Shown: in pieces, positions 3,659 through 21,572 of the stretch
Numbering within the stretch: position 1 is the stretch's first letter
Layout of the letters: each line of letters begins with the position of its first letter
DNA from: Comamonadaceae bacterium M7527
Lineage (GTDB): Bacteria; Pseudomonadota; Gammaproteobacteria; Burkholderiales; Burkholderiaceae_C
DNA length: 32,000 bases
Direction: 5' to 3'
Assembly: GCA_021044545.1 (NCBI GenBank)
Contig: CP087990.1
Location: forward strand, 2,071,038 to 2,103,037
Notes under the pieces: model-generated
The model's input: only the letters and a program-made list of their open reading frames with translations
Database searches by the model: none
What the model was told of the DNA's origin: nothing
Position numbers and translations under genes: made by a program

Positions 3659-3734
3659 GGCCCGGTAGCTCAGTTGGTAGAGCAGCGGATTGAAAATCCG
3701 CGTGTCGATGGTTCGATTCCGTCCCAGGCCACCA
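3659..3734 (+). tRNA. tRNA-Phe (anticodon GAA), 76 nt including encoded CCA
   Basis: Cloverleaf folded by hand: acceptor GGCCCGG/CCAGGCC (one C-A mismatch at 5:68), D arm GCTC-AGTTGGTA-GAGC, anticodon arm GCGGA-TTGAAAA-TCCGC, variable loop GTGTC, T arm GATGG-TTCGATT-CCGTC, then ACCA. Very similar to E. coli tRNA-Phe. Confidence 0.93.
3690..3734 (+). repeat. attL: 45-bp core repeat (anticodon loop to CCA of tRNA-Phe)
   Basis: The exact 45-mer ttgaaaatccgcgtgtcgatggttcgattccgtcccaggccacca recurs at 12610..12654 and 21528..21572. Identity stops exactly at the base 5' of ttgaaaa. Confidence 0.9.
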
Positions 3735-3740
3735 AATACT

Positions 3741-3775
3741 CACCGTAGTCTTGCAAAAGGCTACGGTGTTTTTGT
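3741..3775 (+). terminator. Island-borne rho-independent terminator directly after the reconstituted tRNA-Phe
   Basis: Stem caccgtagtc / ggctacggtg (8 Watson-Crick pairs, one G-U, one more pair), loop ttgcaaaa, followed by ttttt. Confidence 0.7.
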
Positions 3776-3812
3776 TTGTGCATCTCATTCTGCTAGTGCT
3801 GTGCAGTAGACG

Positions 3813-5021
3813 ATGCACAAGCTAGCCAACACTCACCATTGCACACCAACCACCACCATTCGCTTGCGTGACGGTGAGCTAGTCATTTACAAACGCAGCC
3901 GCAGCTTGCAGTACCAATGTCGCTACAAGCTAAGCGACGGCACTTGGACAAGAGCTAGCACTGGCAAAGCAGCTCTGGAGCACGCCATTGCTCGCGCATG
4001 TGATATCTACGATGAATCACGCTATCGACAGCGTCTTGGTTTAGCACACCGTGCACACTCTGTTGCACAGATTGCAGCTGTTTGCTGTGCTGAGCTACGG
4101 CAGCAGATAGATGCAAAAGGCAAGAAGACTGCGCTCAACGACTACTTGAGCATCATCGAGCGTTACTTTGTGCCTTACTTTGGCGAACGCTTGCTTGAAT
4201 CATTGACGCACACAGACATACGTGAGTTTGAGCTGTGGCGCGATAGGCCGCTGTCTAGAGCTCCAAAGACAAGCACGCTCAACAATTTCACAAGTGCTTG
4301 GAGCAGATTGACTGCAGTAGCTGTAGAGCGAGGCTACATCAGTGAGCGAGTACCACTGCCAAAGCCCACAAGCAAGGGCATGAAGGGCACTACACGAGCA
4401 GCATTCAGCGGCGACGAGATGACTGCACTGCTAGCGTTTATGGAGCAGTGGTGCAAGCAAGGTGTCAAAGCTGTTCAGCGTGAAATTCGCCCTTTGCTGC
4501 GCGACTATGTAGAGCTGCTGCTGTTTACTGGCATGAGGCACGGCACAGAGGCGATGAACATACGTTGGCGCGACATAGAGTGGCACACAAAGGATGGTGT
4601 GCGCTACTTGCGCATACACGTGAGTGGCAAAACTGGCAGCAGATGGTTGATTGCCAAACACGCAGCCGTCCATGCGCTGCAACGGCTGCACGCTAGACAA
4701 AGGGATGTTTGTGAGATGTCGTTTGAAACCCTGTTTGCAGCGCGAGTGCAACAACTGCTGTTCAGATACAGCGATGGACATCAGCCACACAGCTTGGTTG
4801 GCACGTTTCGCAAGCTGATGCGTGACAGTGGCATGCTCAAGAACACACAAGGGCAGAGTCGCACGCTGTACTCAATACGCCATACCTACGCCACGCTTGC
4901 ACTGTTGGAGGGTAGTGCAGACATACACACACTCAGCAAGCAGCTTGGCAACAGTGCAGCGATGATTGAGAGGCACTACAGCAAGCTCACAGCGACTATG
5001 GCAGCTGAGAAGTTGGCTTGA
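3813..5021 (+). CDS. Tyrosine recombinase / integrase, 402 aa (allele 1)
   Basis: Catalytic signature: Arg in LFTGMRHGTE, H-x-x-R in SIRHTYATLAL, Tyr in MIERHYSKL. Position is immediately next to the tRNA att site. Confidence 0.9.
   Translation: MHKLANTHHCTPTTTIRLRDGELVIYKRSRSLQYQCRYKLSDGTWTRASTGKAALEHAIARACDIYDESRYRQRLGLAHRAHSVAQIAAVCCAELRQQIDAKGKKTALNDYLSIIERYFVPYFGERLLESLTHTDIREFELWRDRPLSRAPKTSTLNNFTSAWSRLTAVAVERGYISERVPLPKPTSKGMKGTTRAAFSGDEMTALLAFMEQWCKQGVKAVQREIRPLLRDYVELLLFTGMRHGTEAMNIRWRDIEWHTKDGVRYLRIHVSGKTGSRWLIAKHAAVHALQRLHARQRDVCEMSFETLFAARVQQLLFRYSDGHQPHSLVGTFRKLMRDSGMLKNTQGQSRTLYSIRHTYATLALLEGSADIHTLSKQLGNSAAMIERHYSKLTATMAAEKLA
4717..4731 (+). promoter_or_regulatory. Motif site M5 (degenerate): tgtcgtttgaaaccc, inside int
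   Basis: 13/15 match to M1. Confidence 0.3.
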
Positions 5022-5024
5022 AGC

Positions 5025-5040
5025 TGTCGTTTAAAACCAC
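5025..5040 (+). promoter_or_regulatory. Motif site M1: tgtcgtttaaaaccac (TGTCGTTTNAAACSAC family)
   Basis: The 17-mer ctgtcgtttaaaaccac is identical at 5024..5040 and 7409..7425. Lies between the stop codons of int and the wHTH gene. Confidence 0.6.
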
Positions 5041-5044
5041 AACT

Positions 5045-5362
5045 CTAAGACGATCCTTCAAGCTGCTTCAAGTACTGGCGCACTTGGATAACACCGCGTT
5101 TGCTCAGACAGTAGTACTTCGCACGCTTGTCATGTCCATGTTGACGCTCTATGAGCTCAAGGCGCTCCAAGCGTTCCACGCTTCGCTTGAGTGTTGGCAA
5201 GGATGATTGGCACATCACATTTAAAGACTTGAGCATGAGCGCAGACGGATGAACGCGAAACAGTTCAAGCAGAACTGTTAACTCGTCACGTCTACTGACT
5301 GCCAAAACGCTTCGTTCAAACGATTGCGCTGACAAAACTCTTGCAGCTGTCTCAAAAAACAT
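5045..5362 (-). CDS. Small winged-helix (MarR/ArsR-like) DNA-binding protein, 105 aa
   Basis: LPTLKRSVERLERLELIERQHGHDKRAKYYCLSKRG looks like a recognition helix plus wing. Convergent with int and divergent from the micropeptide/Wzz-like operon across an AT-rich spacer. Confidence 0.6.
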   Translation of the reverse strand: MFFETAARVLSAQSFERSVLAVSRRDELTVLLELFRVHPSALMLKSLNVMCQSSLPTLKRSVERLERLELIERQHGHDKRAKYYCLSKRGVIQVRQYLKQLEGSS

Positions 5363-5542
5363 GCTGCGATGATGCAGTCATTTCATGGTCAAAGTAAAAA
5401 CTAAATGCAAAAACAGTATTTCAATAAAAAACAAAACGTTAAAAGATTTTTATGCTGATACATCACTGTTTTCGGCGCTAAATATTGCTAGACGCTATGT
5501 TTACGAGCTTACGCTAGGCGCTGTTTTTAGAACGACTTAGCA

Positions 5543-5656
5543 ATGAAAAAAATCAAATTTACCTTTGGAGCAAAGCTCGCTCTTGTGTCTGCTGTTGTTG
5601 GTTTTGGTGCCTCAGTGTTCTTTCTAATAAAAGAGATCACTAGAGGTATGGCATGA
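5543..5656 (+). CDS. 37-aa single-pass membrane micropeptide (MKKIKFTFGAKLALVSAVVGFGASVFFLIKEITRGMA), below the ORF-track size cut-off
   Basis: Translated by hand. Basic N-terminus, roughly 20-residue hydrophobic helix, short polar tail. Its TGA overlaps the ATG of the 514-aa gene (ATGA at 5653..5656). No clear SD, but the upstream region is AT-rich. Confidence 0.5.
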   Translation: MKKIKFTFGAKLALVSAVVGFGASVFFLIKEITRGMA

Positions 5657-7197
5657 ACGAGCAGCGATTTGAGTCTTCAGACGAAATTGATCTAGGTAGG
5701 TTCTTTACTAACCTTTGGAGTAAACGGCTAGTCGTTGTTGTGTTTGTGGTTCTTGGCTTTGCTGTTGGTGGTGTGCAAGGACTCTTTTCGCAAGCAAGCT
5801 CATTCACCAACACGGTTGCTACTGTGCATGTCAAGCTGAACTTCAAAGGTGCAGAGCTTGGCGAGTATCCAAACGGCTCCAAGTACGCACCAACAGATGT
5901 GATTGCGAGCAAAGTGCTCTCAAGGGTGTATCGAGCAAACAGCCTGGATGACTACGACATTGAGTTGGAGGAGTTTGTATCTGCAGTCAACGCTTATCCG
6001 TGGATACCTAACCAAGCTGCAATGGACGCTAAGTACGCGGATCTTTTTAGTGAAAAAAAGCTAAGCGCACTTGATCGTCAAAAATTGGATGAGCAGTATC
6101 AACAAGAAACACGAAACAGCAATGGCAGATTTTTGATGCTGCAGTGGAGTGGAGACTCAGCTGCAAAAGTGTCCAAAGCGGTTGCACAGAAAGTGTTGGC
6201 AGATATTCCTAAGCAGTGGGCTTCTGTGAGTATTCAAGAGTACGGCGTGTTGGATCTTGAGGTTGTAGTGCCAAGCAAGTTGGATCAGTATCTACTTGAT
6301 ACTGCTGAGTACATCGTCGTTGGTGACTACCTACGCGACTTTGCGAGACAATTAAAAGTGGCTGCACTTGCGTTACAGCAAGATGCTGTCGTAGCAGTTT
6401 TAAAAGACGAACAAACTCAAAGCACAGTTGGTGATGTTGGCAAGCTCATACTGAACTTAGAAAACTTTCACTTGAGTACGCTGCAGCGAACGTTCCTCAT
6501 TGCGCCGCCACGATCTAACGCTGAGGCGGCAAGTTTGTACTTGAGCAGTCGACAACGAGAGTTAGAAGAAAAAATTGCAGAAGCCGAGCGCAAGTCTGAC
6601 GTGATCAATCGCGTCTACCGCGAGTACACGGACAGTGCTGAGACGAAGTCGGCGAGTACTCAAAATGCTGCAGACAAAAATGGCAATTTATCGCCTCAAA
6701 TTGGCGACGACTTCTTGACAAAACTTATGCGTATTGGCGACGAACTATCTGATGCGAAGTACAAGCAAGACTTGCTGAAGGAGCGCAAAGAGTTGTCTTT
6801 TGAAGCCGCTGAGCTTGCAACTGAAAAGCAGCGTATTGAAGCTATTGTTGATGCATTGAGCCAGCCGCGCAGCGTGCAAGTTATCAGTAATCGTGAGGCA
6901 CTAGACAAGAGCGTTAGCTACGTGGTGTCTGAGCTCTCAAACTATGCACAGACATTGGACAGAATCAATCTTATGGCACGTGCTGCAAAGCTAGGGAAAG
7001 TTGGCTCGTTGTACGAAGTCATCAGAGCGCCACAAGTGAGCAGTAGCAGCGTTGATGCGCTAAAAGCTGCGGTGAAGAATGCGTTGTTTGGTTTGCTTGG
7101 TGGTTTGTTTCTTGGAATATTCGTAGCGTTTATTCGCGTTGTGTTGCAAGAGGCACGCTCGCCAAAGTCGTCATCAAACCATGTCGTTGCTGTGTAG
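5653..7197 (+). CDS. Wzz / polysaccharide co-polymerase (PCP)-like two-TM protein with a long coiled-coil periplasmic domain, 514 aa
   Basis: N-terminus SSDEIDLGRFFTNLWSKRLVVVVFVVLGFAVGG matches the classic Wzz N-terminal motif plus TM1. C-terminal APQVSSSS...ALFGLLGGLFLGIFVAFIRVVL is a Pro/Ser segment plus Gly-rich TM2. The region between them is rich in E/K/Q heptad-like sequence. AGAGG lies 6 nt before the ATG. Confidence 0.7.
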   Translation: MNEQRFESSDEIDLGRFFTNLWSKRLVVVVFVVLGFAVGGVQGLFSQASSFTNTVATVHVKLNFKGAELGEYPNGSKYAPTDVIASKVLSRVYRANSLDDYDIELEEFVSAVNAYPWIPNQAAMDAKYADLFSEKKLSALDRQKLDEQYQQETRNSNGRFLMLQWSGDSAAKVSKAVAQKVLADIPKQWASVSIQEYGVLDLEVVVPSKLDQYLLDTAEYIVVGDYLRDFARQLKVAALALQQDAVVAVLKDEQTQSTVGDVGKLILNLENFHLSTLQRTFLIAPPRSNAEAASLYLSSRQRELEEKIAEAERKSDVINRVYREYTDSAETKSASTQNAADKNGNLSPQIGDDFLTKLMRIGDELSDAKYKQDLLKERKELSFEAAELATEKQRIEAIVDALSQPRSVQVISNREALDKSVSYVVSELSNYAQTLDRINLMARAAKLGKVGSLYEVIRAPQVSSSSVDALKAAVKNALFGLLGGLFLGIFVAFIRVVLQEARSPKSSSNHVVAV

Positions 7198-7214
7198 CGT
7201 GCCAAAGTCCAAAT

Positions 7215-7248
7215 AAAAAGCCACTAGTGTTGAGCTAGTGGCTTTTTT
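7215..7248. terminator. Bidirectional rho-independent terminator between the convergent Wzz-like and AAA+ genes
   Basis: aaaaagccactag - tgttgag - ctagtggcttttt: a 13-bp perfect stem with A-run and T-run flanks. Confidence 0.8.
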
Positions 7249-7263
7249 GTTGTCTGACTAGGA

Positions 7264-7971
7264 CTACTTGCTAGCAGCTTGTTTGATGCTGTTGAGTGCT
7301 GCTCTCGCAGCTGCATTGCCGCGCTGCACTTTTAGCATCAAACGCTGCAAGCTGAACATCACATTCCTAAACGAGCCATTGTTGCCACTGATGGCAGCTA
7401 ACAGTTGACTGTCGTTTAAAACCACTTCTGCATCGCTTGCCATGCGTCGAGCGATTGGCAAAAACTCAGCATCTGCTGCTGCGTTCATCTCTATCAACAC
7501 GCATCTATCCTTCAAACCCTTGTCTAACGCTGCGATGTTGTTGGTGGTGAGGATGAACACAGCACGCTTGTTGTTGAGCACTGTTTTCATGCTGCCTTGT
7601 GCGAGCTTGCTCAAGTTATCCACCTCATCAAAAATCAAGTAGTGCAAACCACTCGCATTCAAAGATTGCACGTTCATCATCTTTTTCACAGACTCCATAA
7701 TCGTCGTGTTTGTATGCCCTTGCTGACAGCCAAAAAACTCAGCCTCCATTGCCAACGTGTCTTGTGTCTTGCCAAATTCGATAGCAGAAGGTAGCAAGCG
7801 TGCAAGCGTTGTCTTACCACTGCCAAATGTGCCATACAGCAAAATGCCACTCTTGCCTTCGTATGGAAAAGGTAAGCTGCCACTGACAATGTCTTCAATC
7901 AGTTCGCGTGATTCGTCGTTTCCAAAGACAATTTCGTCGATGGTGGTAGGGGTATATTCAAATTTGTTCAT
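7264..7971 (-). CDS. Clamp-loader (RFC small subunit / T4 gp44 / RarA)-like AAA+ ATPase, 235 aa, lacking most of a collar domain
   Basis: YTPTTIDEIVFGNDESRELIEDIV, then Walker A LLYGTFGSGKTTLARLL, Walker B YLIFDEVDNLSKLAQ, sensor-1 FILTTNN, and KDRCVLIEM in the position of the RFC SRC arginine-finger motif. Collinear by eye with T4 gp44. Confidence 0.75.
   Translation of the reverse strand: MNKFEYTPTTIDEIVFGNDESRELIEDIVSGSLPFPYEGKSGILLYGTFGSGKTTLARLLPSAIEFGKTQDTLAMEAEFFGCQQGHTNTTIMESVKKMMNVQSLNASGLHYLIFDEVDNLSKLAQGSMKTVLNNKRAVFILTTNNIAALDKGLKDRCVLIEMNAAADAEFLPIARRMASDAEVVLNDSQLLAAISGNNGSFRNVMFSLQRLMLKVQRGNAAARAALNSIKQAASK
7410..7425 (+). promoter_or_regulatory. Motif site M2: tgtcgtttaaaaccac, inside the AAA+ gene
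   Basis: Exact 17-nt match with M1. Confidence 0.6.
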
Positions 7972-8009
7972 GTTTGTCTTTCGTTTGTTGATTTGTTGGT
8001 TGGTTATGT

Positions 8010-8735
8010 TTAAGCTGCTAGCTTGAAAGCTTCAGCGTTTTCGCTGTACATCGACAGCAGTGCAGCGTTCAGTGCAGTCGCTGAGCGAACGATTGACTTG
8101 ATTGCAAAGCTGCCATCTGCTTGCTGCTCTGCAATCAGCACACACTCTTCGCCAACATAGTTGCTGTCGCTCATTTCACTCAGCTGTTTAGAGCTAACGC
8201 TTCCAAGTATTGGCATGCTTGAGATATGTTCTTGCATCATTTCTGCTTTGATTTTTGGACTGATGTACGTGGCACTCTTTGACAAGCGAACTTCTTGTAT
8301 GCCACCACGCTGTTCAATCCAATCTGCCAAAGCACTTGGCAATACACCTTCCTTCTGTGCACTTCGCAGCACAAGCGAGTACGTGCTAACACGTCGTCTG
8401 TCTACATCGCCAAATACTGCTTTAACGATACGTGTCATCAGTGGACTTTCACGTTTAACGACTAGCTTGCGTTCCTTTAAAAACGCTTGCAGTTCATTGG
8501 CACGCTGCTTCGCAGCAGACACCTCCAAAGGAGCTCCATAAGACAAGCAGTCAGCAAGTACGCTATACAGCTGTTGGTTGCTTGTGCGAAAAGCGTTGTT
8601 TTGCCATTGCGTGCGTTTGTTCTCCATTGCTTGCAGTGAAGCTGCAGCTGTCATGTCAAATGCTGCCTCATTGGTAGCTGTTGCTGAAGTGTGTGTGTCG
8701 TTTGAAACGACAGCTGATTTGGTGGTAACTTGCAT
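8010..8735 (-). CDS. Unknown 241-aa protein, first gene of the operon with the AAA+ ATPase
   Basis: Long ORF with protein-like composition. ATG at 8735 is preceded by GGAG with a 6-nt spacing (the ORF-track start at 8747 is a TTG). There is a 38-nt gap to the ATPase gene. I recognise no family. Confidence 0.65.
   Translation of the reverse strand: MQVTTKSAVVSNDTHTSATATNEAAFDMTAAASLQAMENKRTQWQNNAFRTSNQQLYSVLADCLSYGAPLEVSAAKQRANELQAFLKERKLVVKRESPLMTRIVKAVFGDVDRRRVSTYSLVLRSAQKEGVLPSALADWIEQRGGIQEVRLSKSATYISPKIKAEMMQEHISSMPILGSVSSKQLSEMSDSNYVGEECVLIAEQQADGSFAIKSIVRSATALNAALLSMYSENAEAFKLAA
8696..8712. promoter_or_regulatory. Motif site M4: tgtcgtttgaaacgaca, a perfect 8+1+8 palindrome near the 5' end of the 241-aa gene
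   Basis: Read directly from the sequence. Sits 24-40 nt inside the ORF from the ATG at 8735. Confidence 0.6.
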
Positions 8736-8836
8736 AAAAATCTCCAAAATATCGTGTAAAAAATTATCGTTTGCATTATTGCTTGCGATGTAATAATTAT
8801 ATTAAAATCAACGTTTTACAGCCATAAACGTCTTAC

Positions 8837-9613
8837 GTGCTAGTATTAGATGTTAAGAATATGAGAAGATATTTTTCAGCACCAACTCCACGCTTTGGTA
8901 AGCAAAGCAGTCGTTTGTCGATTGGTAATCAGCAGCGCAGCCCTTACTATTGGTGGTGGCAGTACTTGCGTCGTAACGCTGACTACATAGCGTGCTGTGA
9001 GCGTGGTGGCAAAGGTAAGCTTGCAAAGCTCTACGCTGACTTTGGTGACGTTCGAAACGACAACTTCCACGAGTGGTGGACAAGTAACGATAGGGGAGTA
9101 ACGCTATTCGCTGAGCAACATTTGGCAGTGCGTTTTGGCGAGTTGGCAAGCGCTGAGCAGTGGCAAGCTAGTTGGCACGCTGATGATGTGCTTGTGGTGG
9201 CTGTACCTTTGGAGATGAGCAAGCGTTCTATCAAGTCTGCGTTCGGCAAGCTATTAGATAAACGACACACAGACGTTAAACGTGGACGTCCATCTATTGC
9301 AAAGCTGAAAGAACACAGTACTGCTCTATATGCGCTAGAGCGCAACTACACCATTAATGGTTTGCAAAACACATTGGCTGTTTATGACTTGTGGATAGAC
9401 AATCAAGCACGCAGCAAAGCAGATAAATTGGCACTGTGGCAAATAGCTGCAGAGCTGAAGCTAAACAGAGCTGCAATCAAAGACGCGACGAGTGACGATA
9501 GTGGCGATAGATTGAGTGGACGTAACACGCTTGGGGCTACTGTGCACCGCTATGTCACGCAAGCCAAGCGCATCATTGGCAATACAGCAAAGGGCAAGTT
9601 CCCCTTGTCGTAG
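8837..9613 (+). CDS. 258-aa protein with W-rich xxLRRNxxY motif (transcriptional-regulator-like domain, DUF6499/FseA-like); true start may be the ATG at 8861
   Basis: RSPYYWWWQYLRRNADYIACCE resembles the W-x-EFLRRNP-x-Y signature of the N-terminal domain of FseA-type ICE activators (from memory). Divergent from the 241-aa/AAA+ operon across an AT-rich spacer. The 8837 start is a GTG. Confidence 0.55.
   Translation: MLVLDVKNMRRYFSAPTPRFGKQSSRLSIGNQQRSPYYWWWQYLRRNADYIACCERGGKGKLAKLYADFGDVRNDNFHEWWTSNDRGVTLFAEQHLAVRFGELASAEQWQASWHADDVLVVAVPLEMSKRSIKSAFGKLLDKRHTDVKRGRPSIAKLKEHSTALYALERNYTINGLQNTLAVYDLWIDNQARSKADKLALWQIAAELKLNRAAIKDATSDDSGDRLSGRNTLGATVHRYVTQAKRIIGNTAKGKFPLS
9046..9062. promoter_or_regulatory. 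Motif site M7: tgacgttcgaaacgaca (15/17 match to M4), inside the 258-aa gene
   Basis: Read directly from the sequence. Confidence 0.4.
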
Positions 9614-9616
9614 CTG

Positions 9617-9632
9617 TGTCGTTTTAAACCAC
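9617..9632 (+). promoter_or_regulatory. Motif site M3: tgtcgttttaaaccac, between the 258-aa gene stop and the short recombinase stop
   Basis: 15/16 identical to M1/M2. Lies 3 nt from the recombinase gene's 3' end. Confidence 0.55.
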
Positions 9633-9634
9633 GC

Positions 9635-10207
9635 TCAAACCAACTCGACAGCTCTGCGCTTCACATCATCATTGACAGTGATGTAACGCTGTGTGGTTGC
9701 AATGCTCTTGTGACCAGCAAGTGAAGCAAGCACAAACACGCTGACACCTTGACTTGCGAGTGACGTTAAAAACGTCTTGCGTCCACTGTGACTGCTTGCA
9801 CCTTTGATGCCAGCAGCTTTGAACAACCAGTAAAAGTGCTGTGACAGCACGTTGGCGCTGAATCCCTTGCGTGCACCACTGTAAGTTGTGAACAGTGCTT
9901 GCTCCTCCTCGTACCACTTGCGCGAGTTGATGTAGCACTGCAGTTCCTCTTGCAGTCGTGTGCTCACATACACAGTGCGTGCATGGTTGTGTTTGACGCG
10001 GTGAGCACCTAGATATATTTCTGCTCGAACCGTGCCGTTCGCATCGCGTACATCACACAGCTTCAAGTCTGCCACCTCGCTCACACGCAAACCACTCATC
10101 ACCATCATCAACAGCATCGCTCTATCGCGTGCTGCAAACTTGCGTGTGCTGATGTAGTCGAGTGTGTGCGCAAGTTCCGCGCTGGTTAGTGATTTAGCTG
10201 CAGCCAT
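9635..10207 (-). CDS. Short (190 aa) catalytic-domain-only tyrosine recombinase, FimB/FimE-sized
   Basis: Arg in MSGLRVSEVADL, H-x-x-R in SSHSGRKTFLT, H..Y in LAGHKSIATTQRYITV. GAGGAA SD lies 6 nt before the ATG. Confidence 0.8.
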   Translation of the reverse strand: MAAAKSLTSAELAHTLDYISTRKFAARDRAMLLMMVMSGLRVSEVADLKLCDVRDANGTVRAEIYLGAHRVKHNHARTVYVSTRLQEELQCYINSRKWYEEEQALFTTYSGARKGFSANVLSQHFYWLFKAAGIKGASSHSGRKTFLTSLASQGVSVFVLASLAGHKSIATTQRYITVNDDVKRRAVELV

Positions 10208-10617
10208 TTGTGTTCCTCAAAGATTTTCAGTGTTGTTAGTGTGTTTTCATTGCCAGTGTTTGAGCAACCAAGTCCGTTCAATTTGGCGGTGCTTTGATGA
10301 GTTGTAGGTTTTCAACGCACTAGCACTTGGTTCACGAACTTTGTGTGTTCTCTTTGGCTGTGTATTTAGCTGAACGCTGCTGCGCTCTGCAAGCGTTTTG
10401 ATATATGTGCTGCTGCTCAGCTCTTCATGCACCTCTTTTATGCGCTTAGACGAAGGATTTGACGTGTTTGCGTGTTGTGCTCGCTGTGCTCACAAATTCA
10501 TCTGCAGCTCAAATATTTCTGCTGCGCAAAAAGTTGCGGTGAAGTACTTACAGAAGTGAGGTGGTGATTTGCACTCGGTGCTGTTTGTGAAGTGCTTACA
10601 CTTCATTGGCAAGTAAG

Positions 10618-10635
10618 AGCAAGCAGCTGCTTGCT
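10618..10635. repeat. 18-bp perfect palindrome AGCAAGCAGCTGCTTGCT in the low-coding region
   Basis: Read directly from the sequence. Overlaps a second palindrome, TGCTAGCA. Preceded by the hairpin gaagtg-ctta-cacttc (10589..10604) and the direct repeat gaagtacttaca / gaagtgcttaca (10541 and 10589). Confidence 0.7.
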
Positions 10636-11001
10636 AGCAGTTCGCTCGTCGCTCTCTGCTGTGCTCTTCTGTCTTTTGACATGACTGTTTTGGAAATGTT
10701 TCGAGCAAACGACGGCTATGTCGCACAGTGTGCGAACAGTAGCTGTCGTTGTAGTCTGTTCCGTATAAAGTCCGTCGCAGTACAAGCATGAGTGAGTTTG
10801 ACGGAAGACGTATGTATTAAAACTTCCAAACTGCTTCAGCATTGGTTTGCTTTGCAGATACTCAGCGGCACTCTCGTTCTACACAGCCTTCATGCCAACT
10901 GTGTAGTGATTGCAAAGTCATTAGCCGTCATATTTCCCTTTGCGTTTTTAGCCTTTGATAGCGCAGTGCTTTATCTGCGTGGTGTTGCCTTGGTGTTTGC
11001 C

Positions 11002-11355
11002 TTAGTGTTTGTTCTGTCTGTGCTGCCTGAACAATCGCTTGTTAGCTCGTGTGCAGATGTTGAGCACTTGGTAGGCACGCTTGTCGCTCAGTCGCGCTCG
11101 TTTGCGTTTGTTCTGGATGCACTTGAGGTAGTCGCCGAGTACCGTAGCTTGCTTACTGTCTATAAGCTCAAGCTGCGCATGCTCTGCGTGAATGCCAAGT
11201 GTTCGCTTCGCAGCTGCTTGTGCTTTAAGGAGTAGTGCGTCTGTCGTTGCAAACGTCGCTGCAGCTAAGCCTCTTTGCTTTAGCCACGCATCAGTTGCTT
11301 CAGTGTCACGCAATGCACTTACTCGAATTTGATATTGCTGTTCTTGTTTGTTCAT
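11002..11355 (-). CDS. Possible ribbon-helix-helix-like small DNA-binding protein, 117 aa from the second ATG
   Basis: YQIRVSALRDTEATDAWLKQRGLAAATFATTDALLLKA has a strand-helix-helix pattern, followed by a basic C-terminus. Composition is far more protein-like than the antisense 147-aa ORF. No clear SD. Confidence 0.4.
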   Translation of the reverse strand: MNKQEQQYQIRVSALRDTEATDAWLKQRGLAAATFATTDALLLKAQAAAKRTLGIHAEHAQLELIDSKQATVLGDYLKCIQNKRKRARLSDKRAYQVLNICTRANKRLFRQHRQNKH

Positions 11356-11420
11356 GCAAGTATTTAGCATCTGCCAAACAAAACCTTGGCGAAACTGAAG
11401 CGTTGTTTGGCAATAAGTGC

Positions 11421-11440
11421 TGCAGTGCAGTGCAGTGCAT
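11421..11440. repeat. Pentanucleotide tract (TGCAG)x3 plus TGCAT, flanked by the inverted repeat aagtgc / gcactt (11415..11451)
   Basis: Read directly from the sequence. Lies in the divergent spacer between the RHH-like gene and the 146-aa gene. Confidence 0.7.
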
Positions 11441-11536
11441 GTGTGGCACTTTGACGCTCATCGCCTTTTTCGGTTGCTCAAGTTGTGGTGGTGACAACAC
11501 ACTAGCTGTATTGCAACTGCATAGGAACACAGCAAC

Positions 11537-11977: not shown

Positions 11978-12038
11978 TGCAAGCGATGCAATCAAAGTCG
12001 CTCTGTAGATTGTCTTGTGCTGCGTTGATAAATACTCC

Positions 12039-12654: not shown

Positions 12655-12660
12655 AATATT

Positions 12661-13941: not shown

Positions 13942-13964
13942 AGCTGTCGTTTAAAACCACAACT

Positions 13965-14282
13965 CTAAGACGATCCTTCAAGCTGCTTCAAGTACTGGCG
14001 CACTTGGATAACACCGCGTTTGCTCAGACAGTAGTACTTCGCACGCTTGTCATGTCCATGTTGACGCTCTATGAGCTCAAGGCGCTCCAAGCGTTCCACG
14101 CTTCGCTTGAGTGTTGGCAAGGATGATTGGCACATCACATTTAAAGACTTGAGCATGAGCGCAGACGGATGAACGCGAAACAGTTCAAGCAGAACTGTTA
14201 ACTCGTCACGTCTACTGACTGCCAAAACGCTTCGTTCAAACGATTGCGCTGACAAAACTCTTGCAGCTGTCTCAAAAAACAT
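13965..14282 (-). CDS. Small winged-helix DNA-binding protein (copy 2)
   Basis: Identical translation to 5045..5362. Confidence 0.6.
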   Translation of the reverse strand: MFFETAARVLSAQSFERSVLAVSRRDELTVLLELFRVHPSALMLKSLNVMCQSSLPTLKRSVERLERLELIERQHGHDKRAKYYCLSKRGVIQVRQYLKQLEGSS

Positions 14283-14462
14283 GCTGCGATGATGCAGTCA
14301 TTTCATGGTCAAAGTAAAAACTAAATGCAAAAACAGTATTTCAATAAAAAACAAAACGTTAAAAGATTTTTATGCTGATACATCACTGTTTTCGGCGCTA
14401 AATATTGCTAGACGCTATGTTTACGAGCTTACGCTAGGCGCTGTTTTTAGAACGACTTAGCA

Positions 14463-14576
14463 ATGAAAAAAATCAAATTTACCTTTGGAGCAAAGCTCGC
14501 TCTTGTGTCTGCTGTTGTTGGTTTTGGTGCCTCAGTGTTCTTTCTAATAAAAGAGATCACTAGAGGTATGGCATGA
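14463..14576 (+). CDS. 37-aa membrane micropeptide (copy 2)
   Basis: Identical sequence to 5543..5656. Confidence 0.5.
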   Translation: MKKIKFTFGAKLALVSAVVGFGASVFFLIKEITRGMA

Positions 14577-16117
14577 ACGAGCAGCGATTTGAGTCTTCAG
14601 ACGAAATTGATCTAGGTAGGTTCTTTACTAACCTTTGGAGTAAACGGCTAGTCGTTGTTGTGTTTGTGGTTCTTGGCTTTGCTGTTGGTGGTGTGCAAGG
14701 ACTCTTTTCGCAAGCAAGCTCATTCACCAACACGGTTGCTACTGTGCATGTCAAGCTGAACTTCAAAGGTGCAGAGCTTGGCGAGTATCCAAACGGCTCC
14801 AAGTACGCACCAACAGATGTGATTGCGAGCAAAGTGCTCTCAAGGGTGTATCGAGCAAACAGCCTGGATGACTACGACATTGAGTTGGAGGAGTTTGTAT
14901 CTGCAGTCAACGCTTATCCGTGGATACCTAACCAAGCTGCAATGGACGCTAAGTACGCGGATCTTTTTAGTGAAAAAAAGCTAAGCGCACTTGATCGTCA
15001 AAAATTGGATGAGCAGTATCAACAAGAAACACGAAACAGCAATGGCAGATTTTTGATGCTGCAGTGGAGTGGAGACTCAGCTGCAAAAGTGTCCAAAGCG
15101 GTTGCACAGAAAGTGTTGGCAGATATTCCTAAGCAGTGGGCTTCTGTGAGTATTCAAGAGTACGGCGTGTTGGATCTTGAGGTTGTAGTGCCAAGCAAGT
15201 TGGATCAGTATCTACTTGATACTGCTGAGTACATCGTCGTTGGTGACTACCTACGCGACTTTGCGAGACAATTAAAAGTGGCTGCACTTGCGTTACAGCA
15301 AGATGCTGTCGTAGCAGTTTTAAAAGACGAACAAACTCAAAGCACAGTTGGTGATGTTGGCAAGCTCATACTGAACTTAGAAAACTTTCACTTGAGTACG
15401 CTGCAGCGAACGTTCCTCATTGCGCCGCCACGATCTAACGCTGAGGCGGCAAGTTTGTACTTGAGCAGTCGACAACGAGAGTTAGAAGAAAAAATTGCAG
15501 AAGCCGAGCGCAAGTCTGACGTGATCAATCGCGTCTACCGCGAGTACACGGACAGTGCTGAGACGAAGTCGGCGAGTACTCAAAATGCTGCAGACAAAAA
15601 TGGCAATTTATCGCCTCAAATTGGCGACGACTTCTTGACAAAACTTATGCGTATTGGCGACGAACTATCTGATGCGAAGTACAAGCAAGACTTGCTGAAG
15701 GAGCGCAAAGAGTTGTCTTTTGAAGCCGCTGAGCTTGCAACTGAAAAGCAGCGTATTGAAGCTATTGTTGATGCATTGAGCCAGCCGCGCAGCGTGCAAG
15801 TTATCAGTAATCGTGAGGCACTAGACAAGAGCGTTAGCTACGTGGTGTCTGAGCTCTCAAACTATGCACAGACATTGGACAGAATCAATCTTATGGCACG
15901 TGCTGCAAAGCTAGGGAAAGTTGGCTCGTTGTACGAAGTCATCAGAGCGCCACAAGTGAGCAGTAGCAGCGTTGATGCGCTAAAAGCTGCGGTGAAGAAT
16001 GCGTTGTTTGGTTTGCTTGGTGGTTTGTTTCTTGGAATATTCGTAGCGTTTATTCGCGTTGTGTTGCAAGAGGCACGCTCGCCAAAGTCGTCATCAAACC
16101 ATGTCGTTGCTGTGTAG
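14573..16117 (+). CDS. Wzz/PCP-like two-TM protein (copy 2)
   Basis: Identical translation to 5653..7197. Confidence 0.7.
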   Translation: MNEQRFESSDEIDLGRFFTNLWSKRLVVVVFVVLGFAVGGVQGLFSQASSFTNTVATVHVKLNFKGAELGEYPNGSKYAPTDVIASKVLSRVYRANSLDDYDIELEEFVSAVNAYPWIPNQAAMDAKYADLFSEKKLSALDRQKLDEQYQQETRNSNGRFLMLQWSGDSAAKVSKAVAQKVLADIPKQWASVSIQEYGVLDLEVVVPSKLDQYLLDTAEYIVVGDYLRDFARQLKVAALALQQDAVVAVLKDEQTQSTVGDVGKLILNLENFHLSTLQRTFLIAPPRSNAEAASLYLSSRQRELEEKIAEAERKSDVINRVYREYTDSAETKSASTQNAADKNGNLSPQIGDDFLTKLMRIGDELSDAKYKQDLLKERKELSFEAAELATEKQRIEAIVDALSQPRSVQVISNREALDKSVSYVVSELSNYAQTLDRINLMARAAKLGKVGSLYEVIRAPQVSSSSVDALKAAVKNALFGLLGGLFLGIFVAFIRVVLQEARSPKSSSNHVVAV

Positions 16118-16134
16118 CGTGCCAAAGTCCAAAT

Positions 16135-16168
16135 AAAAAGCCACTAGTGTTGAGCTAGTGGCTTTTTT
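16135..16168. terminator. Bidirectional terminator (copy 2)
   Basis: Identical to 7215..7248. Confidence 0.8.
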
Positions 16169-16183
16169 GTTGTCTGACTAGGA

Positions 16184-16891
16184 CTACTTGCTAGCAGCTT
16201 GTTTGATGCTGTTGAGTGCTGCTCTCGCAGCTGCATTGCCGCGCTGCACTTTTAGCATCAAACGCTGCAAGCTGAACATCACATTCCTAAACGAGCCATT
16301 GTTGCCACTGATGGCAGCTAACAGTTGACTGTCGTTTAAAACCACTTCTGCATCGCTTGCCATGCGTCGAGCGATTGGCAAAAACTCAGCATCTGCTGCT
16401 GCGTTCATCTCTATCAACACGCATCTATCCTTCAAACCCTTGTCTAACGCTGCGATGTTGTTGGTGGTGAGGATGAACACAGCACGCTTGTTGTTGAGCA
16501 CTGTTTTCATGCTGCCTTGTGCGAGCTTGCTCAAGTTATCCACCTCATCAAAAATCAAGTAGTGCAAACCACTCGCATTCAAAGATTGCACGTTCATCAT
16601 CTTTTTCACAGACTCCATAATCGTCGTGTTTGTATGCCCTTGCTGACAGCCAAAAAACTCAGCCTCCATTGCCAACGTGTCTTGTGTCTTGCCAAATTCG
16701 ATAGCAGAAGGTAGCAAGCGTGCAAGCGTTGTCTTACCACTGCCAAATGTGCCATACAGCAAAATGCCACTCTTGCCTTCGTATGGAAAAGGTAAGCTGC
16801 CACTGACAATGTCTTCAATCAGTTCGCGTGATTCGTCGTTTCCAAAGACAATTTCGTCGATGGTGGTAGGGGTATATTCAAATTTGTTCAT
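16184..16891 (-). CDS. Clamp-loader-like AAA+ ATPase (copy 2)
   Basis: Identical translation to 7264..7971. Confidence 0.75.
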   Translation of the reverse strand: MNKFEYTPTTIDEIVFGNDESRELIEDIVSGSLPFPYEGKSGILLYGTFGSGKTTLARLLPSAIEFGKTQDTLAMEAEFFGCQQGHTNTTIMESVKKMMNVQSLNASGLHYLIFDEVDNLSKLAQGSMKTVLNNKRAVFILTTNNIAALDKGLKDRCVLIEMNAAADAEFLPIARRMASDAEVVLNDSQLLAAISGNNGSFRNVMFSLQRLMLKVQRGNAAARAALNSIKQAASK

Positions 16892-16929
16892 GTTTGTCTT
16901 TCGTTTGTTGATTTGTTGGTTGGTTATGT

Positions 16930-17655
16930 TTAAGCTGCTAGCTTGAAAGCTTCAGCGTTTTCGCTGTACATCGACAGCAGTGCAGCGTTCAGTGCAGTCG
17001 CTGAGCGAACGATTGACTTGATTGCAAAGCTGCCATCTGCTTGCTGCTCTGCAATCAGCACACACTCTTCGCCAACATAGTTGCTGTCGCTCATTTCACT
17101 CAGCTGTTTAGAGCTAACGCTTCCAAGTATTGGCATGCTTGAGATATGTTCTTGCATCATTTCTGCTTTGATTTTTGGACTGATGTACGTGGCACTCTTT
17201 GACAAGCGAACTTCTTGTATGCCACCACGCTGTTCAATCCAATCTGCCAAAGCACTTGGCAATACACCTTCCTTCTGTGCACTTCGCAGCACAAGCGAGT
17301 ACGTGCTAACACGTCGTCTGTCTACATCGCCAAATACTGCTTTAACGATACGTGTCATCAGTGGACTTTCACGTTTAACGACTAGCTTGCGTTCCTTTAA
17401 AAACGCTTGCAGTTCATTGGCACGCTGCTTCGCAGCAGACACCTCCAAAGGAGCTCCATAAGACAAGCAGTCAGCAAGTACGCTATACAGCTGTTGGTTG
17501 CTTGTGCGAAAAGCGTTGTTTTGCCATTGCGTGCGTTTGTTCTCCATTGCTTGCAGTGAAGCTGCAGCTGTCATGTCAAATGCTGCCTCATTGGTAGCTG
17601 TTGCTGAAGTGTGTGTGTCGTTTGAAACGACAGCTGATTTGGTGGTAACTTGCAT
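16930..17655 (-). CDS. Unknown 241-aa protein (copy 2)
   Basis: Identical translation to 8010..8735. Confidence 0.65.
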   Translation of the reverse strand: MQVTTKSAVVSNDTHTSATATNEAAFDMTAAASLQAMENKRTQWQNNAFRTSNQQLYSVLADCLSYGAPLEVSAAKQRANELQAFLKERKLVVKRESPLMTRIVKAVFGDVDRRRVSTYSLVLRSAQKEGVLPSALADWIEQRGGIQEVRLSKSATYISPKIKAEMMQEHISSMPILGSVSSKQLSEMSDSNYVGEECVLIAEQQADGSFAIKSIVRSATALNAALLSMYSENAEAFKLAA

Positions 17656-17756
17656 AAAAATCTCCAAAATATCGTGTAAAAAATTATCGTTTGCATTATT
17701 GCTTGCGATGTAATAATTATATTAAAATCAACGTTTTACAGCCATAAACGTCTTAC

Positions 17757-18533
17757 GTGCTAGTATTAGATGTTAAGAATATGAGAAGATATTTTTCAGC
17801 ACCAACTCCACGCTTTGGTAAGCAAAGCAGTCGTTTGTCGATTGGTAATCAGCAGCGCAGCCCTTACTATTGGTGGTGGCAGTACTTGCGTCGTAACGCT
17901 GACTACATAGCGTGCTGTGAGCGTGGTGGCAAAGGTAAGCTTGCAAAGCTCTACGCTGACTTTGGTGACGTTCGAAACGACAACTTCCACGAGTGGTGGA
18001 CAAGTAACGATAGGGGAGTAACGCTATTCGCTGAGCAACATTTGGCAGTGCGTTTTGGCGAGTTGGCAAGCGCTGAGCAGTGGCAAGCTAGTTGGCACGC
18101 TGATGATGTGCTTGTGGTGGCTGTACCTTTGGAGATGAGCAAGCGTTCTATCAAGTCTGCGTTCGGCAAGCTATTAGATAAACGACACACAGACGTTAAA
18201 CGTGGACGTCCATCTATTGCAAAGCTGAAAGAACACAGTACTGCTCTATATGCGCTAGAGCGCAACTACACCATTAATGGTTTGCAAAACACATTGGCTG
18301 TTTATGACTTGTGGATAGACAATCAAGCACGCAGCAAAGCAGATAAATTGGCACTGTGGCAAATAGCTGCAGAGCTGAAGCTAAACAGAGCTGCAATCAA
18401 AGACGCGACGAGTGACGATAGTGGCGATAGATTGAGTGGACGTAACACGCTTGGGGCTACTGTGCACCGCTATGTCACGCAAGCCAAGCGCATCATTGGC
18501 AATACAGCAAAGGGCAAGTTCCCCTTGTCGTAG
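17757..18533 (+). CDS. FseA/DUF6499-like W-rich motif protein (copy 2)
   Basis: Identical translation to 8837..9613. Confidence 0.55.
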   Translation: MLVLDVKNMRRYFSAPTPRFGKQSSRLSIGNQQRSPYYWWWQYLRRNADYIACCERGGKGKLAKLYADFGDVRNDNFHEWWTSNDRGVTLFAEQHLAVRFGELASAEQWQASWHADDVLVVAVPLEMSKRSIKSAFGKLLDKRHTDVKRGRPSIAKLKEHSTALYALERNYTINGLQNTLAVYDLWIDNQARSKADKLALWQIAAELKLNRAAIKDATSDDSGDRLSGRNTLGATVHRYVTQAKRIIGNTAKGKFPLS

Positions 18534-18554
18534 CTGTGTCGTTTTAAACCACGC

Positions 18555-19127
18555 TCAAACCAACTCGACAGCTCTGCGCTTCACATCATCATTGACAGTG
18601 ATGTAACGCTGTGTGGTTGCAATGCTCTTGTGACCAGCAAGTGAAGCAAGCACAAACACGCTGACACCTTGACTTGCGAGTGACGTTAAAAACGTCTTGC
18701 GTCCACTGTGACTGCTTGCACCTTTGATGCCAGCAGCTTTGAACAACCAGTAAAAGTGCTGTGACAGCACGTTGGCGCTGAATCCCTTGCGTGCACCACT
18801 GTAAGTTGTGAACAGTGCTTGCTCCTCCTCGTACCACTTGCGCGAGTTGATGTAGCACTGCAGTTCCTCTTGCAGTCGTGTGCTCACATACACAGTGCGT
18901 GCATGGTTGTGTTTGACGCGGTGAGCACCTAGATATATTTCTGCTCGAACCGTGCCGTTCGCATCGCGTACATCACACAGCTTCAAGTCTGCCACCTCGC
19001 TCACACGCAAACCACTCATCACCATCATCAACAGCATCGCTCTATCGCGTGCTGCAAACTTGCGTGTGCTGATGTAGTCGAGTGTGTGCGCAAGTTCCGC
19101 GCTGGTTAGTGATTTAGCTGCAGCCAT
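18555..19127 (-). CDS. Short tyrosine recombinase (copy 2)
   Basis: Identical translation to 9635..10207. Confidence 0.8.
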   Translation of the reverse strand: MAAAKSLTSAELAHTLDYISTRKFAARDRAMLLMMVMSGLRVSEVADLKLCDVRDANGTVRAEIYLGAHRVKHNHARTVYVSTRLQEELQCYINSRKWYEEEQALFTTYSGARKGFSANVLSQHFYWLFKAAGIKGASSHSGRKTFLTSLASQGVSVFVLASLAGHKSIATTQRYITVNDDVKRRAVELV

Positions 19128-19921
19128 TTGTGTTCCTCAAAGATTTTCAGTGTTGTTAGTGTGTTTTCATTGCCAGTGTTTGAGCAACCAAGTCCGTTCA
19201 ATTTGGCGGTGCTTTGATGAGTTGTAGGTTTTCAACGCACTAGCACTTGGTTCACGAACTTTGTGTGTTCTCTTTGGCTGTGTATTTAGCTGAACGCTGC
19301 TGCGCTCTGCAAGCGTTTTGATATATGTGCTGCTGCTCAGCTCTTCATGCACCTCTTTTATGCGCTTAGACGAAGGATTTGACGTGTTTGCGTGTTGTGC
19401 TCGCTGTGCTCACAAATTCATCTGCAGCTCAAATATTTCTGCTGCGCAAAAAGTTGCGGTGAAGTACTTACAGAAGTGAGGTGGTGATTTGCACTCGGTG
19501 CTGTTTGTGAAGTGCTTACACTTCATTGGCAAGTAAGAGCAAGCAGCTGCTTGCTAGCAGTTCGCTCGTCGCTCTCTGCTGTGCTCTTCTGTCTTTTGAC
19601 ATGACTGTTTTGGAAATGTTTCGAGCAAACGACGGCTATGTCGCACAGTGTGCGAACAGTAGCTGTCGTTGTAGTCTGTTCCGTATAAAGTCCGTCGCAG
19701 TACAAGCATGAGTGAGTTTGACGGAAGACGTATGTATTAAAACTTCCAAACTGCTTCAGCATTGGTTTGCTTTGCAGATACTCAGCGGCACTCTCGTTCT
19801 ACACAGCCTTCATGCCAACTGTGTAGTGATTGCAAAGTCATTAGCCGTCATATTTCCCTTTGCGTTTTTAGCCTTTGATAGCGCAGTGCTTTATCTGCGT
19901 GGTGTTGCCTTGGTGTTTGCC

Positions 19922-20275
19922 TTAGTGTTTGTTCTGTCTGTGCTGCCTGAACAATCGCTTGTTAGCTCGTGTGCAGATGTTGAGCACTTGGTAGGCACGC
20001 TTGTCGCTCAGTCGCGCTCGTTTGCGTTTGTTCTGGATGCACTTGAGGTAGTCGCCGAGTACCGTAGCTTGCTTACTGTCTATAAGCTCAAGCTGCGCAT
20101 GCTCTGCGTGAATGCCAAGTGTTCGCTTCGCAGCTGCTTGTGCTTTAAGGAGTAGTGCGTCTGTCGTTGCAAACGTCGCTGCAGCTAAGCCTCTTTGCTT
20201 TAGCCACGCATCAGTTGCTTCAGTGTCACGCAATGCACTTACTCGAATTTGATATTGCTGTTCTTGTTTGTTCAT
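19922..20275 (-). CDS. Possible RHH-like protein (copy 2)
   Basis: Identical translation to 11002..11355. Confidence 0.4.
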   Translation of the reverse strand: MNKQEQQYQIRVSALRDTEATDAWLKQRGLAAATFATTDALLLKAQAAAKRTLGIHAEHAQLELIDSKQATVLGDYLKCIQNKRKRARLSDKRAYQVLNICTRANKRLFRQHRQNKH

Positions 20276-20456
20276 GCAAGTATTTAGCATCTGCCAAACA
20301 AAACCTTGGCGAAACTGAAGCGTTGTTTGGCAATAAGTGCTGCAGTGCAGTGCAGTGCATGTGTGGCACTTTGACGCTCATCGCCTTTTTCGGTTGCTCA
20401 AGTTGTGGTGGTGACAACACACTAGCTGTATTGCAACTGCATAGGAACACAGCAAC

Positions 20457-20897
20457 ATGACAGCAACACTTGGCACTCTAAAGCTCACAGCAGCACAAAA
20501 GCCCTCGCACGTAACTCCAATACAGCAGCGACGCAACAAACTGGCGAAGCGTTTGTTCGAGCAAGCTGAGTTGGCGAAAGCCCAACAACTCGGCTCAACA
20601 TACAAACCAATCAAGTTCAAGACTGTTACGGACGCAGATGGTATGCGAAAGCAAGTGGAGCAGTACAAGACAGTGAAGGCGTGGTGGTTTACGGCAGACA
20701 ACGGTAAGTTGGCACTGAGCGTGCGCTACGGTACAAAAGTGCTTGAGCTAGCAAAAGGCAGGTGGAGCGTTGAGGTAGCAAGCACACAAGAGCTTGTGCC
20801 AACGTTAGAGCTGATTAAAGCTGCGGTGCTAAACGGTGAGCTAGATGCTGCAATCGATGTTGCATCAGACAAATTGAAGCTTGGCTTTAAGCGTTGA
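20457..20897 (+). CDS. Hypothetical 146-aa protein (copy 2)
   Basis: Identical translation to 11537..11977. Confidence 0.6.
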   Translation: MTATLGTLKLTAAQKPSHVTPIQQRRNKLAKRLFEQAELAKAQQLGSTYKPIKFKTVTDADGMRKQVEQYKTVKAWWFTADNGKLALSVRYGTKVLELAKGRWSVEVASTQELVPTLELIKAAVLNGELDAAIDVASDKLKLGFKR

Positions 20898-20958
20898 TGC
20901 AAGCGATGCAATCAAAGTCGCTCTGTAGATTGTCTTGTGCTGCGTTGATAAATACTCC

Positions 20959-21273
20959 ATGCAGTACAAGGAATTCAAAACGACATCACAGAGCGCAGCG
21001 CAATCAAAGCCAGCTTCGTCTAGCAGTGATGCTGCCAGCAACACAAAGCAAGGCAGCAAGCAGCGTGCAGCCAAGCGTGCACGCACTACTGCAAAGACAC
21101 AAACGCTTGCGCAGATGCGCATTCAGCATTTGCAAGACAAAGTCAAACACGCAAAGGCTGAGCTTGCGGCAGAGATTGCAGCGCAGCGTTTGGCGCTATC
21201 CAACAAGCAGCGTGAGCAAAAGCGTAGAGCACTACAGAGGCAGAGTCTGCAAGCTGTACAAGCTGCGAAGTGA
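20959..21273 (+). CDS. Basic coiled-coil protein (copy 2), 4 residues shorter because of the 2-bp deletion
   Basis: Ends ...QAVQAAK, versus ...QAVQAAKREQD in unit 1. Confidence 0.5.
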   Translation: MQYKEFKTTSQSAAQSKPASSSSDAASNTKQGSKQRAAKRARTTAKTQTLAQMRIQHLQDKVKHAKAELAAEIAAQRLALSNKQREQKRRALQRQSLQAVQAAK

Positions 21274-21527
21274 GCAAGACTAAGTGTCTTTCAAAACGTC
21301 ACTTGCACAACCGTAGCAAAACCGCTGATAGCTGCACAGTTACGCTCAAGCAGCTTGTGCAGCTTAGACACGCTAGTGCAGTGCTGAGAGGCATAGTGCA
21401 AATGGTGCGAGCGCAGCAGCAGTGTGCTAAATGTTTTGTAGAAAAAACGTTGCAGAATTTCGCACACCAATCTGTTCCAAAGCAAAATCCAGTTGAAAAA
21501 TTTAACTCTTTCGCACTCTTGTCAGCG

Positions 21528-21572
21528 TTGAAAATCCGCGTGTCGATGGTTCGATTCCGTCCCAGGCCACCA
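21528..21572 (+). repeat. attR: 45-bp partial tRNA-Phe 3' copy, followed by native flanking DNA
   Basis: Exact copy of 3690..3734. The sequence after CCA (agttcaaaagcccc...) differs from the island sequence (aatactcaccg...). Confidence 0.9.

Follow-up and report, generated by a model that had tools for sequence, protein, structure and literature searches.

The window analysed here, a stretch of 32,000 nucleotides from contig CP087990.1 of Comamonadaceae bacterium M7527, contains an integrase-bearing island composed of two nearly identical units arranged head to tail at a tRNA-Phe gene. The intact tRNA-Phe(GAA) gene (3659–3734) is the sole tRNA of the window (ARAGORN; Rfam tRNA model, 67.4 bits), and the 45-mer TTGAAAATCCGCGTGTCGATGGTTCGATTCCGTCCCAGGCCACCA, which begins with the first anticodon-loop base of this gene and ends with its CCA, occurs in exactly three copies starting at positions 3690, 12610 and 21528. 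The last 25 nucleotides of the 45-mer still give three matches when three mismatches are allowed (0.00 expected from shuffled sequences). These attachment (att) copies delimit units of 8920 and 8918 bp which align from end to end with 99.5% identity, 43 substitutions and one 2-bp indel. A preliminary description of this DNA had claimed both the triple occurrence of the 45-mer and the two unit lengths, and exact search and alignment agree with it. The GC content of the island is 48%, compared with 58–59% in its flanks.

Alignment of the three att regions gives the order attL, unit 1, attP-like junction, unit 2 and attR, all cores being on the forward strand. The core of attL (att1, 3690–3734) has the 5′ half of the tRNA on its left and a P′ arm on its right; the core at the junction (att2, 12610–12654) lies between a P arm and a P′ arm; and the core of attR (att3, 21528–21572) is preceded by a P arm and followed by chromosomal sequence. 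At att1 the native tRNA terminator is replaced by an element-borne one in the P′ arm, a hairpin with a 12-bp stem followed by a T-run, which a terminator scan located at 3741–3778 and, in unit 2, at 12661–12698 (forward strand). A different, GC-rich hairpin with a T-run follows att3 at about 21580–21611 and is read as the native tRNA-Phe terminator. The intact attP-like junction that had been proposed is thus present as P arm, core and P′ arm at att2, and it is colinear with an independent metagenome contig (locus L089) at 96% identity with no gaps. The edges of the repeat coincide with the att copies, as no base is common to the left of att1 and att2 and a single bp is common beyond att3. A random segmental duplication would not yield such ends, since the repeat period equals the distance from att to att, and this origin was rejected because the repeat ends within 1 bp of the att cores. 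The locus also displays the anatomy of the class of tRNA-gene islands with an anticodon-loop attP (Williams 2002; Islander): an intact tRNA gene marks one end and a direct repeat of the tRNA 3′ part the other, a gene for a tyrosine integrase lies within and adjoins the tRNA gene (tDNA), and a block of identity extends from the anticodon loop to the tRNA 3′ end, with a crossover that would lie 5′ of the T arm.

The integrase genes (int) are intact in both units and each adjoins its own att copy (3813–5021 and 12733–13941, forward strand). The 402-amino acid product matches phrog_1 (E=4e-31) and, weakly, XerA/XerS (XerA-like, E=3.6e-8); it did not reach E≤0.01 with the Pfam Phage_integrase model, and its homologues carry PF00589. 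All 43 substitutions between the units fall within 3739–4604 (866 bp, allele a), which belongs to the first 915 bp of unit 1 and includes the P′ arm and int codons 9–264, and within its unit 2 counterpart at 12659–13524 (allele b), both on the forward strand. Divergence in this patch is about 5% over 0.9 kb. Of 38 changed int codons, 30 are synonymous and 8 are non-synonymous, giving 8 amino acid differences between the integrases; because most changes are synonymous, these are not sequencing errors but selected alleles, and their divergence took place under purifying selection. To the right of the patch the units are 100% identical over 7745 bp (4605–12349 and 13525–21269), and such perfect identity indicates that they have a very recent common ancestor. 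The sole difference beyond the patch is a GC dinucleotide present in unit 1 (12350–12351, forward strand) and missing in unit 2 between 21269 and 21270. Since L089 carries the GC, the deletion in unit 2 is the derived state.

This 2-bp loss takes four codons off the last gene of unit 2. The gene encodes a basic Lys/Ala/Gln-rich protein of 116 amino acids in unit 1 (12015–12365, forward strand; 108 amino acids from the ATG at 12040) and of 112 in unit 2 (20935–21273); three of the four differences between this open reading frame (ORF) and L089 occupy third codon positions of its frame. The ORFs of the two units had been described as matching one-for-one, which holds overall except for the length of this last gene and for a spurious ORF through att2. 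The units are plain duplicates over the 7.7 kb of identical sequence but not over the first 915 bp, where the clustering of substitutions had gone unremarked.

Closely related integrase genes were found at three places elsewhere: in the genome of a related species (L087, GCA_052726975.1) and in two metagenomes (L089 and L090). Alleles a and b each differ by about 5% from one another and from these three genes, with which they have polymorphisms in common in a patchwork. Comparison of L087 with the window gives 85–88% identity for the chromosome and about 95% for the integrase gene, and outside the patch the members of this population differ by 2–8% from the window element. The left 0.9 kb of the two units therefore represents two independent draws from a recombining population, and the remaining 7.7 kb were copied from one another very recently. 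In L087 a degenerate island occupies the same tRNA-Phe (9878–12750) and consists of a 97% identical integrase, a Wzz/GNVR-like gene and a fragment of an insertion sequence (IS) transposase, and an attR is absent. The Wzz-like genes of L087 and L089 are 91% identical, so that envelope chain-length genes recur as integrase-proximal cargo. Another contig (L091, JGI Ga0597497_0035223) matches 7829–10291 of the window at 92% DNA identity overall and 99% identity for the p258 protein (see below), a discrepancy that provides more evidence of segment exchange among family members.

This island is one member of an abundant aquatic family of integrative elements that has not yet been named. The marker of the family is a 146-amino acid DUF6641 protein encoded near the right end of each unit (11537–11977 and 20457–20897, forward strand; Pfam E=4e-15), whose relatives form 1839 protein clusters; among metagenomes 140 DUF6641 loci were recorded, of which 80 were fetched for comparison, and family contigs in metagenome assemblies are mostly short. 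A recombinase of 190 amino acids lies a few kb upstream of DUF6641 in about 30 loci (those of at least 7 kb with enough upstream sequence), which have an integrase at the far end and variable cargo in between. Some family members are integrated at tRNA-Cys instead of tRNA-Phe. The core of the family comprises the integrase, the 190-amino acid catalytic-only recombinase, the protein p122, DUF6641 and the basic coiled-coil protein, together with the conserved 17-bp palindrome TGTCGTTTNAAACGACA, which occurs at many places along the element.

In 9 of 23 informative loci the end of an element is followed by another integrase gene, located at most 3 kb downstream of DUF6641 on the same strand; in the other 14 at least 2.5 kb are visible and contain none. 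Of these nine, at least five are true arrays with units that can be told apart (L003, L029, L011, L066 and L061). The array of the isolate Limnohabitans sp. 2KL-51 (L003) has three att copies, with an intact element adjoining the tRNA and a decayed one in distal position, the latter with a split integrase gene and an IS transposase, and its units are 70–75% identical. Each att copy of L003 has a different, internally complementary T-stem, a pattern which places the crossover 5′ of the T arm and implies that each element brings its own tRNA 3′ half. Identity between units amounts to 90–93% in L029 and 89–90% in L011, and L066 and L061 contain differing integrases within the array (40% identical in L066).

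Taken together, the locus is probably a genuine tandem dimer of a small integrase-bearing island in tRNA-Phe, with homologous exchange at one int end. The proposed history draws on what is established about tyrosine integrases with tRNA genes as targets. The element integrase would recombine attP with the tRNA gene through a crossover within the anticodon loop, where the 45-nucleotide block has its left edge. Since a tRNA 3′ half and a terminator come with the element, integration restores the tRNA gene, and because attL retains the tRNA 5′ half and the 45-nucleotide core, that is, all of attB, it stays a full target. A second copy, either an excised circle that re-integrates or one received from a sister cell, could then insert at attL and displace the resident from the tRNA, which would make unit 1 the newer copy. 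The 0.9-kb patch would stem from homologous exchange with another circulating int allele, before or after the array was formed, and the 2-bp loss close to the end of the last gene of unit 2 came later. With three usable att sites in the array, excision could release either monomer or the whole dimer, and the junction on the L089 contig lends indirect support to excision. Neither unit has a damaged cargo ORF and gene dose is therefore doubled, as the preliminary description had stated; the integrases may be active and the doubled dose may be of benefit. The origin by att recombination advanced in that description is borne out by the att anatomy and by the presence of int in each unit, with the qualification that it did not act alone, as the mosaic implies homologous recombination too.

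Several points weigh against this interpretation. The array is seen in a single assembly, which unit arrived first and when int was exchanged are conjectures from one genome, and no excisionase was identified among the genes of the units. The junctions seen on short contigs in L023, L060, L065 and L089 could be excised circles and not arrays, and the 7.7-kb identity could in part have been made by consensus polishing with multi-mapping reads.

The last of these points bears on the possibility of an artefact. A collapsed repeat, a misjoined circle or a duplication introduced by the assembler would all give identical copies and are made unlikely by the divergence of the units; the simple assembly duplication or misjoined circle that had been raised earlier thus founders on the approximately 5% difference over 0.9 kb. 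A more elaborate version supposes a sample of two single-copy strains or sub-populations (allele a plus the GC in the first, allele b plus the deletion in the second) and some excised circles, from which a long-read assembler built one path leading from the left flank via allele a, the shared body, the circle junction, allele b and again the shared body to the right flank. The private markers at both ends of each unit are what end-to-end haplotypes would look like, the population holds several int alleles and molecules bearing the junction exist (L089), family contigs are mostly short in metagenome assemblies, and polishing with multi-mapping reads can erase strain differences. However, independent strains should differ by 2–8% over the other 7.7 kb, where the units do not differ at all, a second haplotype is not apparent in the flanks, and real arrays exist both in an isolate (L003) and in short-read contigs with distinguishable units (L029 and L011). 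We thus regard this artefact as unlikely.

An in situ duplication without the integrase might arise by RecA-mediated unequal exchange on sister chromatids between attL and attR, which share 45–49 bp of identity. DNA imported from a related strain would later have replaced 0.9 kb at the left end of one unit and perhaps the chromosomal left flank as well. The product would be indistinguishable from a dimer made by the integrase, the 7.7-kb identity fits a very recent duplication and the divergent patch starts immediately to the right of att. Nevertheless, 45–49 bp of identity are a poor substrate for RecA, and arrays whose members have little in common beyond att (L066 and L003) cannot come from homology; such arrays of unlike elements indicate that site-specific insertion is the usual route of the family, and this makes the RecA-only origin of the dimer quite improbable. 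The reverse sequence of events, in which two elements that diverged by about 5% over their full length were integrated serially and conversion or unequal exchange later made everything to the right of 4604 identical, finds precedents in the heterologous arrays with 89–93% unit identity (L029 and L011) and in the tandem SXT/R391 arrays that recombine into hybrids (PMC5812530). It would need one conversion tract of at least 7.7 kb running exactly to the end of the unit, with not one substitution left over in the last 258 bp, where L089 differs at four positions, and we consider it very doubtful. The preferred explanation remains a tandem dimer built by site-specific integration, with exchange confined to the int end.

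Between int and the core genes each unit carries a set of cargo genes. Next to the integrase is a 105-amino acid winged-helix protein (5045–5362 and 13965–14282, reverse strand) that may be a regulator, given a weak match to MarR/HTH_27. After it comes a 514-amino acid protein (5653–7197 and 14573–16117, forward strand) with hydrophobic stretches near both ends and a weakly Wzz-like N-terminus, putatively a polysaccharide co-polymerase; its match to Pfam Wzz (E=0.003, 18.3 bits) is below the cut-off of 25.5. Clearer Wzz/GNVR genes occupy the same position in L087 and L089, and no significant similarity was found between them and the 514-amino acid protein. A three-gene cassette comes next (7264–9613 and 16184–18533) and encodes, with unit 1 coordinates, a clamp-loader-like AAA ATPase (7264–7971, reverse strand), the 245-amino acid protein p245 (8010–8747, reverse strand) and the 258-amino acid protein p258 (8837–9613, forward strand; likely start at 8861). 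These three genes recur together in L006, L030, L052 and L075, and in L077 without the ATPase at the contig end; the cassette travels as a unit and one of its carriers sits at tRNA-Cys.

The predicted structure of p258 is all-helical and confident (pLDDT 84.6, pTM 0.79), and a fold search with this model against PDB and BFVD gave no match at E≤0.001, while PDB sequence searches with p245, p258 and the 514-amino acid protein were empty or spurious. A likeness of the p258 motif WWWQYLRRNADY to the DUF6499/DUF2285 regulators of ICE excision (ICE, integrative and conjugative element) was dropped, as no Pfam match was obtained at E≤10. A PADLOC scan for defence systems returned weak AAA matches only, and Rfam models over 3000–22500 detected nothing besides the tRNA.

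On the side of attR, each unit contains the core genes of the family. The 190-amino acid tyrosine recombinase (9635–10207 and 18555–19127, reverse strand) consists of the catalytic domain only (Pfam Phage_integrase, E=1e-26), and the conserved core protein p122, of 122 amino acids (11002–11370 and 19922–20290, reverse strand), has a reading frame conserved in 52 related loci. The predicted structure of the DUF6641 protein is mediocre (pLDDT 69) and has no match among PDB folds; no DUF6641 relatives were found in viral contigs and phage genomes, and no literature was found on DUF6641 or on freshwater tRNA-Phe islands.

The units also contain repeated and conserved DNA. The 13-mer TGTCGTTTNAAAC, which is half of the palindrome TGTCGTTTNAAACGACA, has 18 matches in the two units and 1 in 14 kb of flanks (one mismatch allowed; 0.21 expected), with sites at 4717, 5025, 7410, 8696, 9050, 9617 and 11242 and, 8920 nucleotides further on, in unit 2. 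In L006 it occurs at 10860, 14468, 16245 and 16798, and its placement in L006 and in the window is alike (integrase, AAA ATPase, p258 and the gap between p258 and the recombinase) at a DNA identity of only about 70%. The 13-mer and the palindrome are probably a binding site for a protein of the element.

An imperfect inverted repeat of 33 nucleotides (10237–10269 and 11472–11504) brackets 1.2 kb between the 190-amino acid recombinase and DUF6641, its arms being located about 30 bp upstream of the start codons of these two genes, and a homologous repeat exists in the marine relative L011 (2526–2568 and 3849–3891). An inversion switch of the FimB/FimE type operated by the recombinase was rejected, as no inverted variant was seen; p122 was located in 9 loci and has the same orientation in every one of them. 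Rather than inversion sites, the arms are more probably operators that divergent operons share.

Within the same interval, 10616–11064 has about 73% DNA conservation with L003 and L006 and no convincing long ORF, with several frames that look conserved, a pattern that would suit functional non-coding DNA, for instance an origin, a regulatory site or an RNA; Rfam gave no match over this segment. Regarding L006 itself, its contig (CALQKH020000010.1) is labelled as a metagenome-assembled genome of Akkermansia muciniphila, yet it has the Comamonadaceae ntrX/tRNA-Phe arrangement and an integrase of the Limnohabitans type (Limnohabitans sp. Rim8), and it was probably mis-binned.

The left flank of the island encodes an NtrY-like kinase (456–2726) and an NtrX-like regulator (2783–3496), and the right flank contains a yhaV remnant, pldA (22049–23380, reverse strand) and a Rep/UvrD helicase. 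The names ntrX and pldA given to the flanking genes in the preliminary description hold, while its yhaV is a match to a pseudogene and not to a complete gene (21641–22045, reverse strand). The C-terminal 46 residues of this toxin remnant match Pfam Toxin_YhaV (E=2e-20), and it has an internal TAG, lacks its N-terminus and directly adjoins the stop codon of pldA; an antitoxin gene is not evident. The remnant may be the leftover of an older island at the tRNA-Phe site. The arrangement of ntrYX, tRNA-Phe and integrase is also found in Limnohabitans and Polaromonas genomes, with integrases that are 70–81% identical, which makes the host a Limnohabitans-like bacterium of the Comamonadaceae.

A real array would show the growth and shuffling of tRNA-gene islands at a very recent stage, with identical copies over 7.7 kb, an exchanged integrase end and an intact attP-like junction from which monomers or dimers could be released. 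A further implication is that planktonic bacteria harbour a widespread and as yet uncharacterised family of small elements, among whose cargo are Wzz-like envelope proteins and the three-gene cassette. Rather speculatively, these 6–10 kb elements of freshwater and marine Proteobacteria might have arrays as their normal state, which would serve as a workbench for swaps of integrases and cargo via homologous recombination or else represent re-integrated intermediates of concatemeric replication or packaging; we give this idea limited credence. In practical terms, this is a locus where the assembly and polishing of a genome warrant care at the level of reads.

Several known classes of mobile elements were considered for the island. 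Membership among the ICEs was rejected, as Pfam, NCBIfam and PHROG searches with all unit ORFs gave no matches to a relaxase, a coupling protein or type IV secretion, and 8.9 kb is too small a size. Profile searches of the unit ORFs for primase, helicase, terminase and capsid proteins had no matches either and, DUF6641 being without a viral match, a place among the phage satellites (PICI, P4-like or PICMI) was likewise rejected; a cryptic satellite is possible, given the proteins without assigned function. Nor does the island qualify as a prophage.

The closest parallels are found among tandem islands and accreting elements. The Islander survey (Hudson, Lau, Williams) listed 125 tandems among 3919 islands and recognised a class with anticodon-centred attP (PMC4383910). 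Like these tandems, the array described here starts from an intact tDNA, with direct copies of the 3′ tDNA portion separating the units and following the last one; its attP is centred on the anticodon loop, and an integrase gene of the tyrosine type and a tDNA fragment belong to each member. It differs in that its members are 99.5% identical and in that 9 of 23 informative loci of its family show an element end joined to an integrase gene.

Tycheposons of Prochlorococcus and other aquatic bacteria (Hackl et al.) sometimes lie side by side with a partial tRNA alone between them, and newcomers push older ones away (10.1101/2020.12.28.424599). They have in common with the present elements a small size, a cargo, tyrosine recombinases, planktonic hosts and tRNA genes as targets, whereas the host lineage and the target tRNA differ and the helicase, primase and packaging module were not found here in profile searches.

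Among conjugative systems, the SXT/R391 elements form unstable arrays from which hybrid ICEs are made by RecA or Bet/Exo (Hochhut 2001; Burrus and Waldor 2004; PMC5812530). They resemble the present case in that related elements share one attachment site, form chromosomal arrays and give rise to homologous mosaics, but they are conjugative elements of about 100 kb inserted in prfC, as opposed to an 8.9-kb element in a tRNA gene in which conjugation genes were not detected. The same source reports tandem amplification of the clc element (ICEclc) in Pseudomonas putida F1 (Ravatn 1998, via PMC5812530), where head-to-tail identical copies of an integrase-bearing element also raise the dose of the cargo; that amplification was selected experimentally for chlorocatechol degradation, while the island described here has no known selective agent. 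It further describes site-specific tandem accretion at one att site for ICESt1/CIME of streptococci (Pavlovic 2004, via PMC5812530). Islands grow there by the same kind of accretion as proposed here, although it joins unlike elements, some of which lack an integrase and are cis-mobilisable remnants. The tandem accretion of islands at tRNA genes is thus no novelty, and what stands out in the present case is the near-identity of the units, the sharp boundary of the mosaic and the high share of family loci with a junction.

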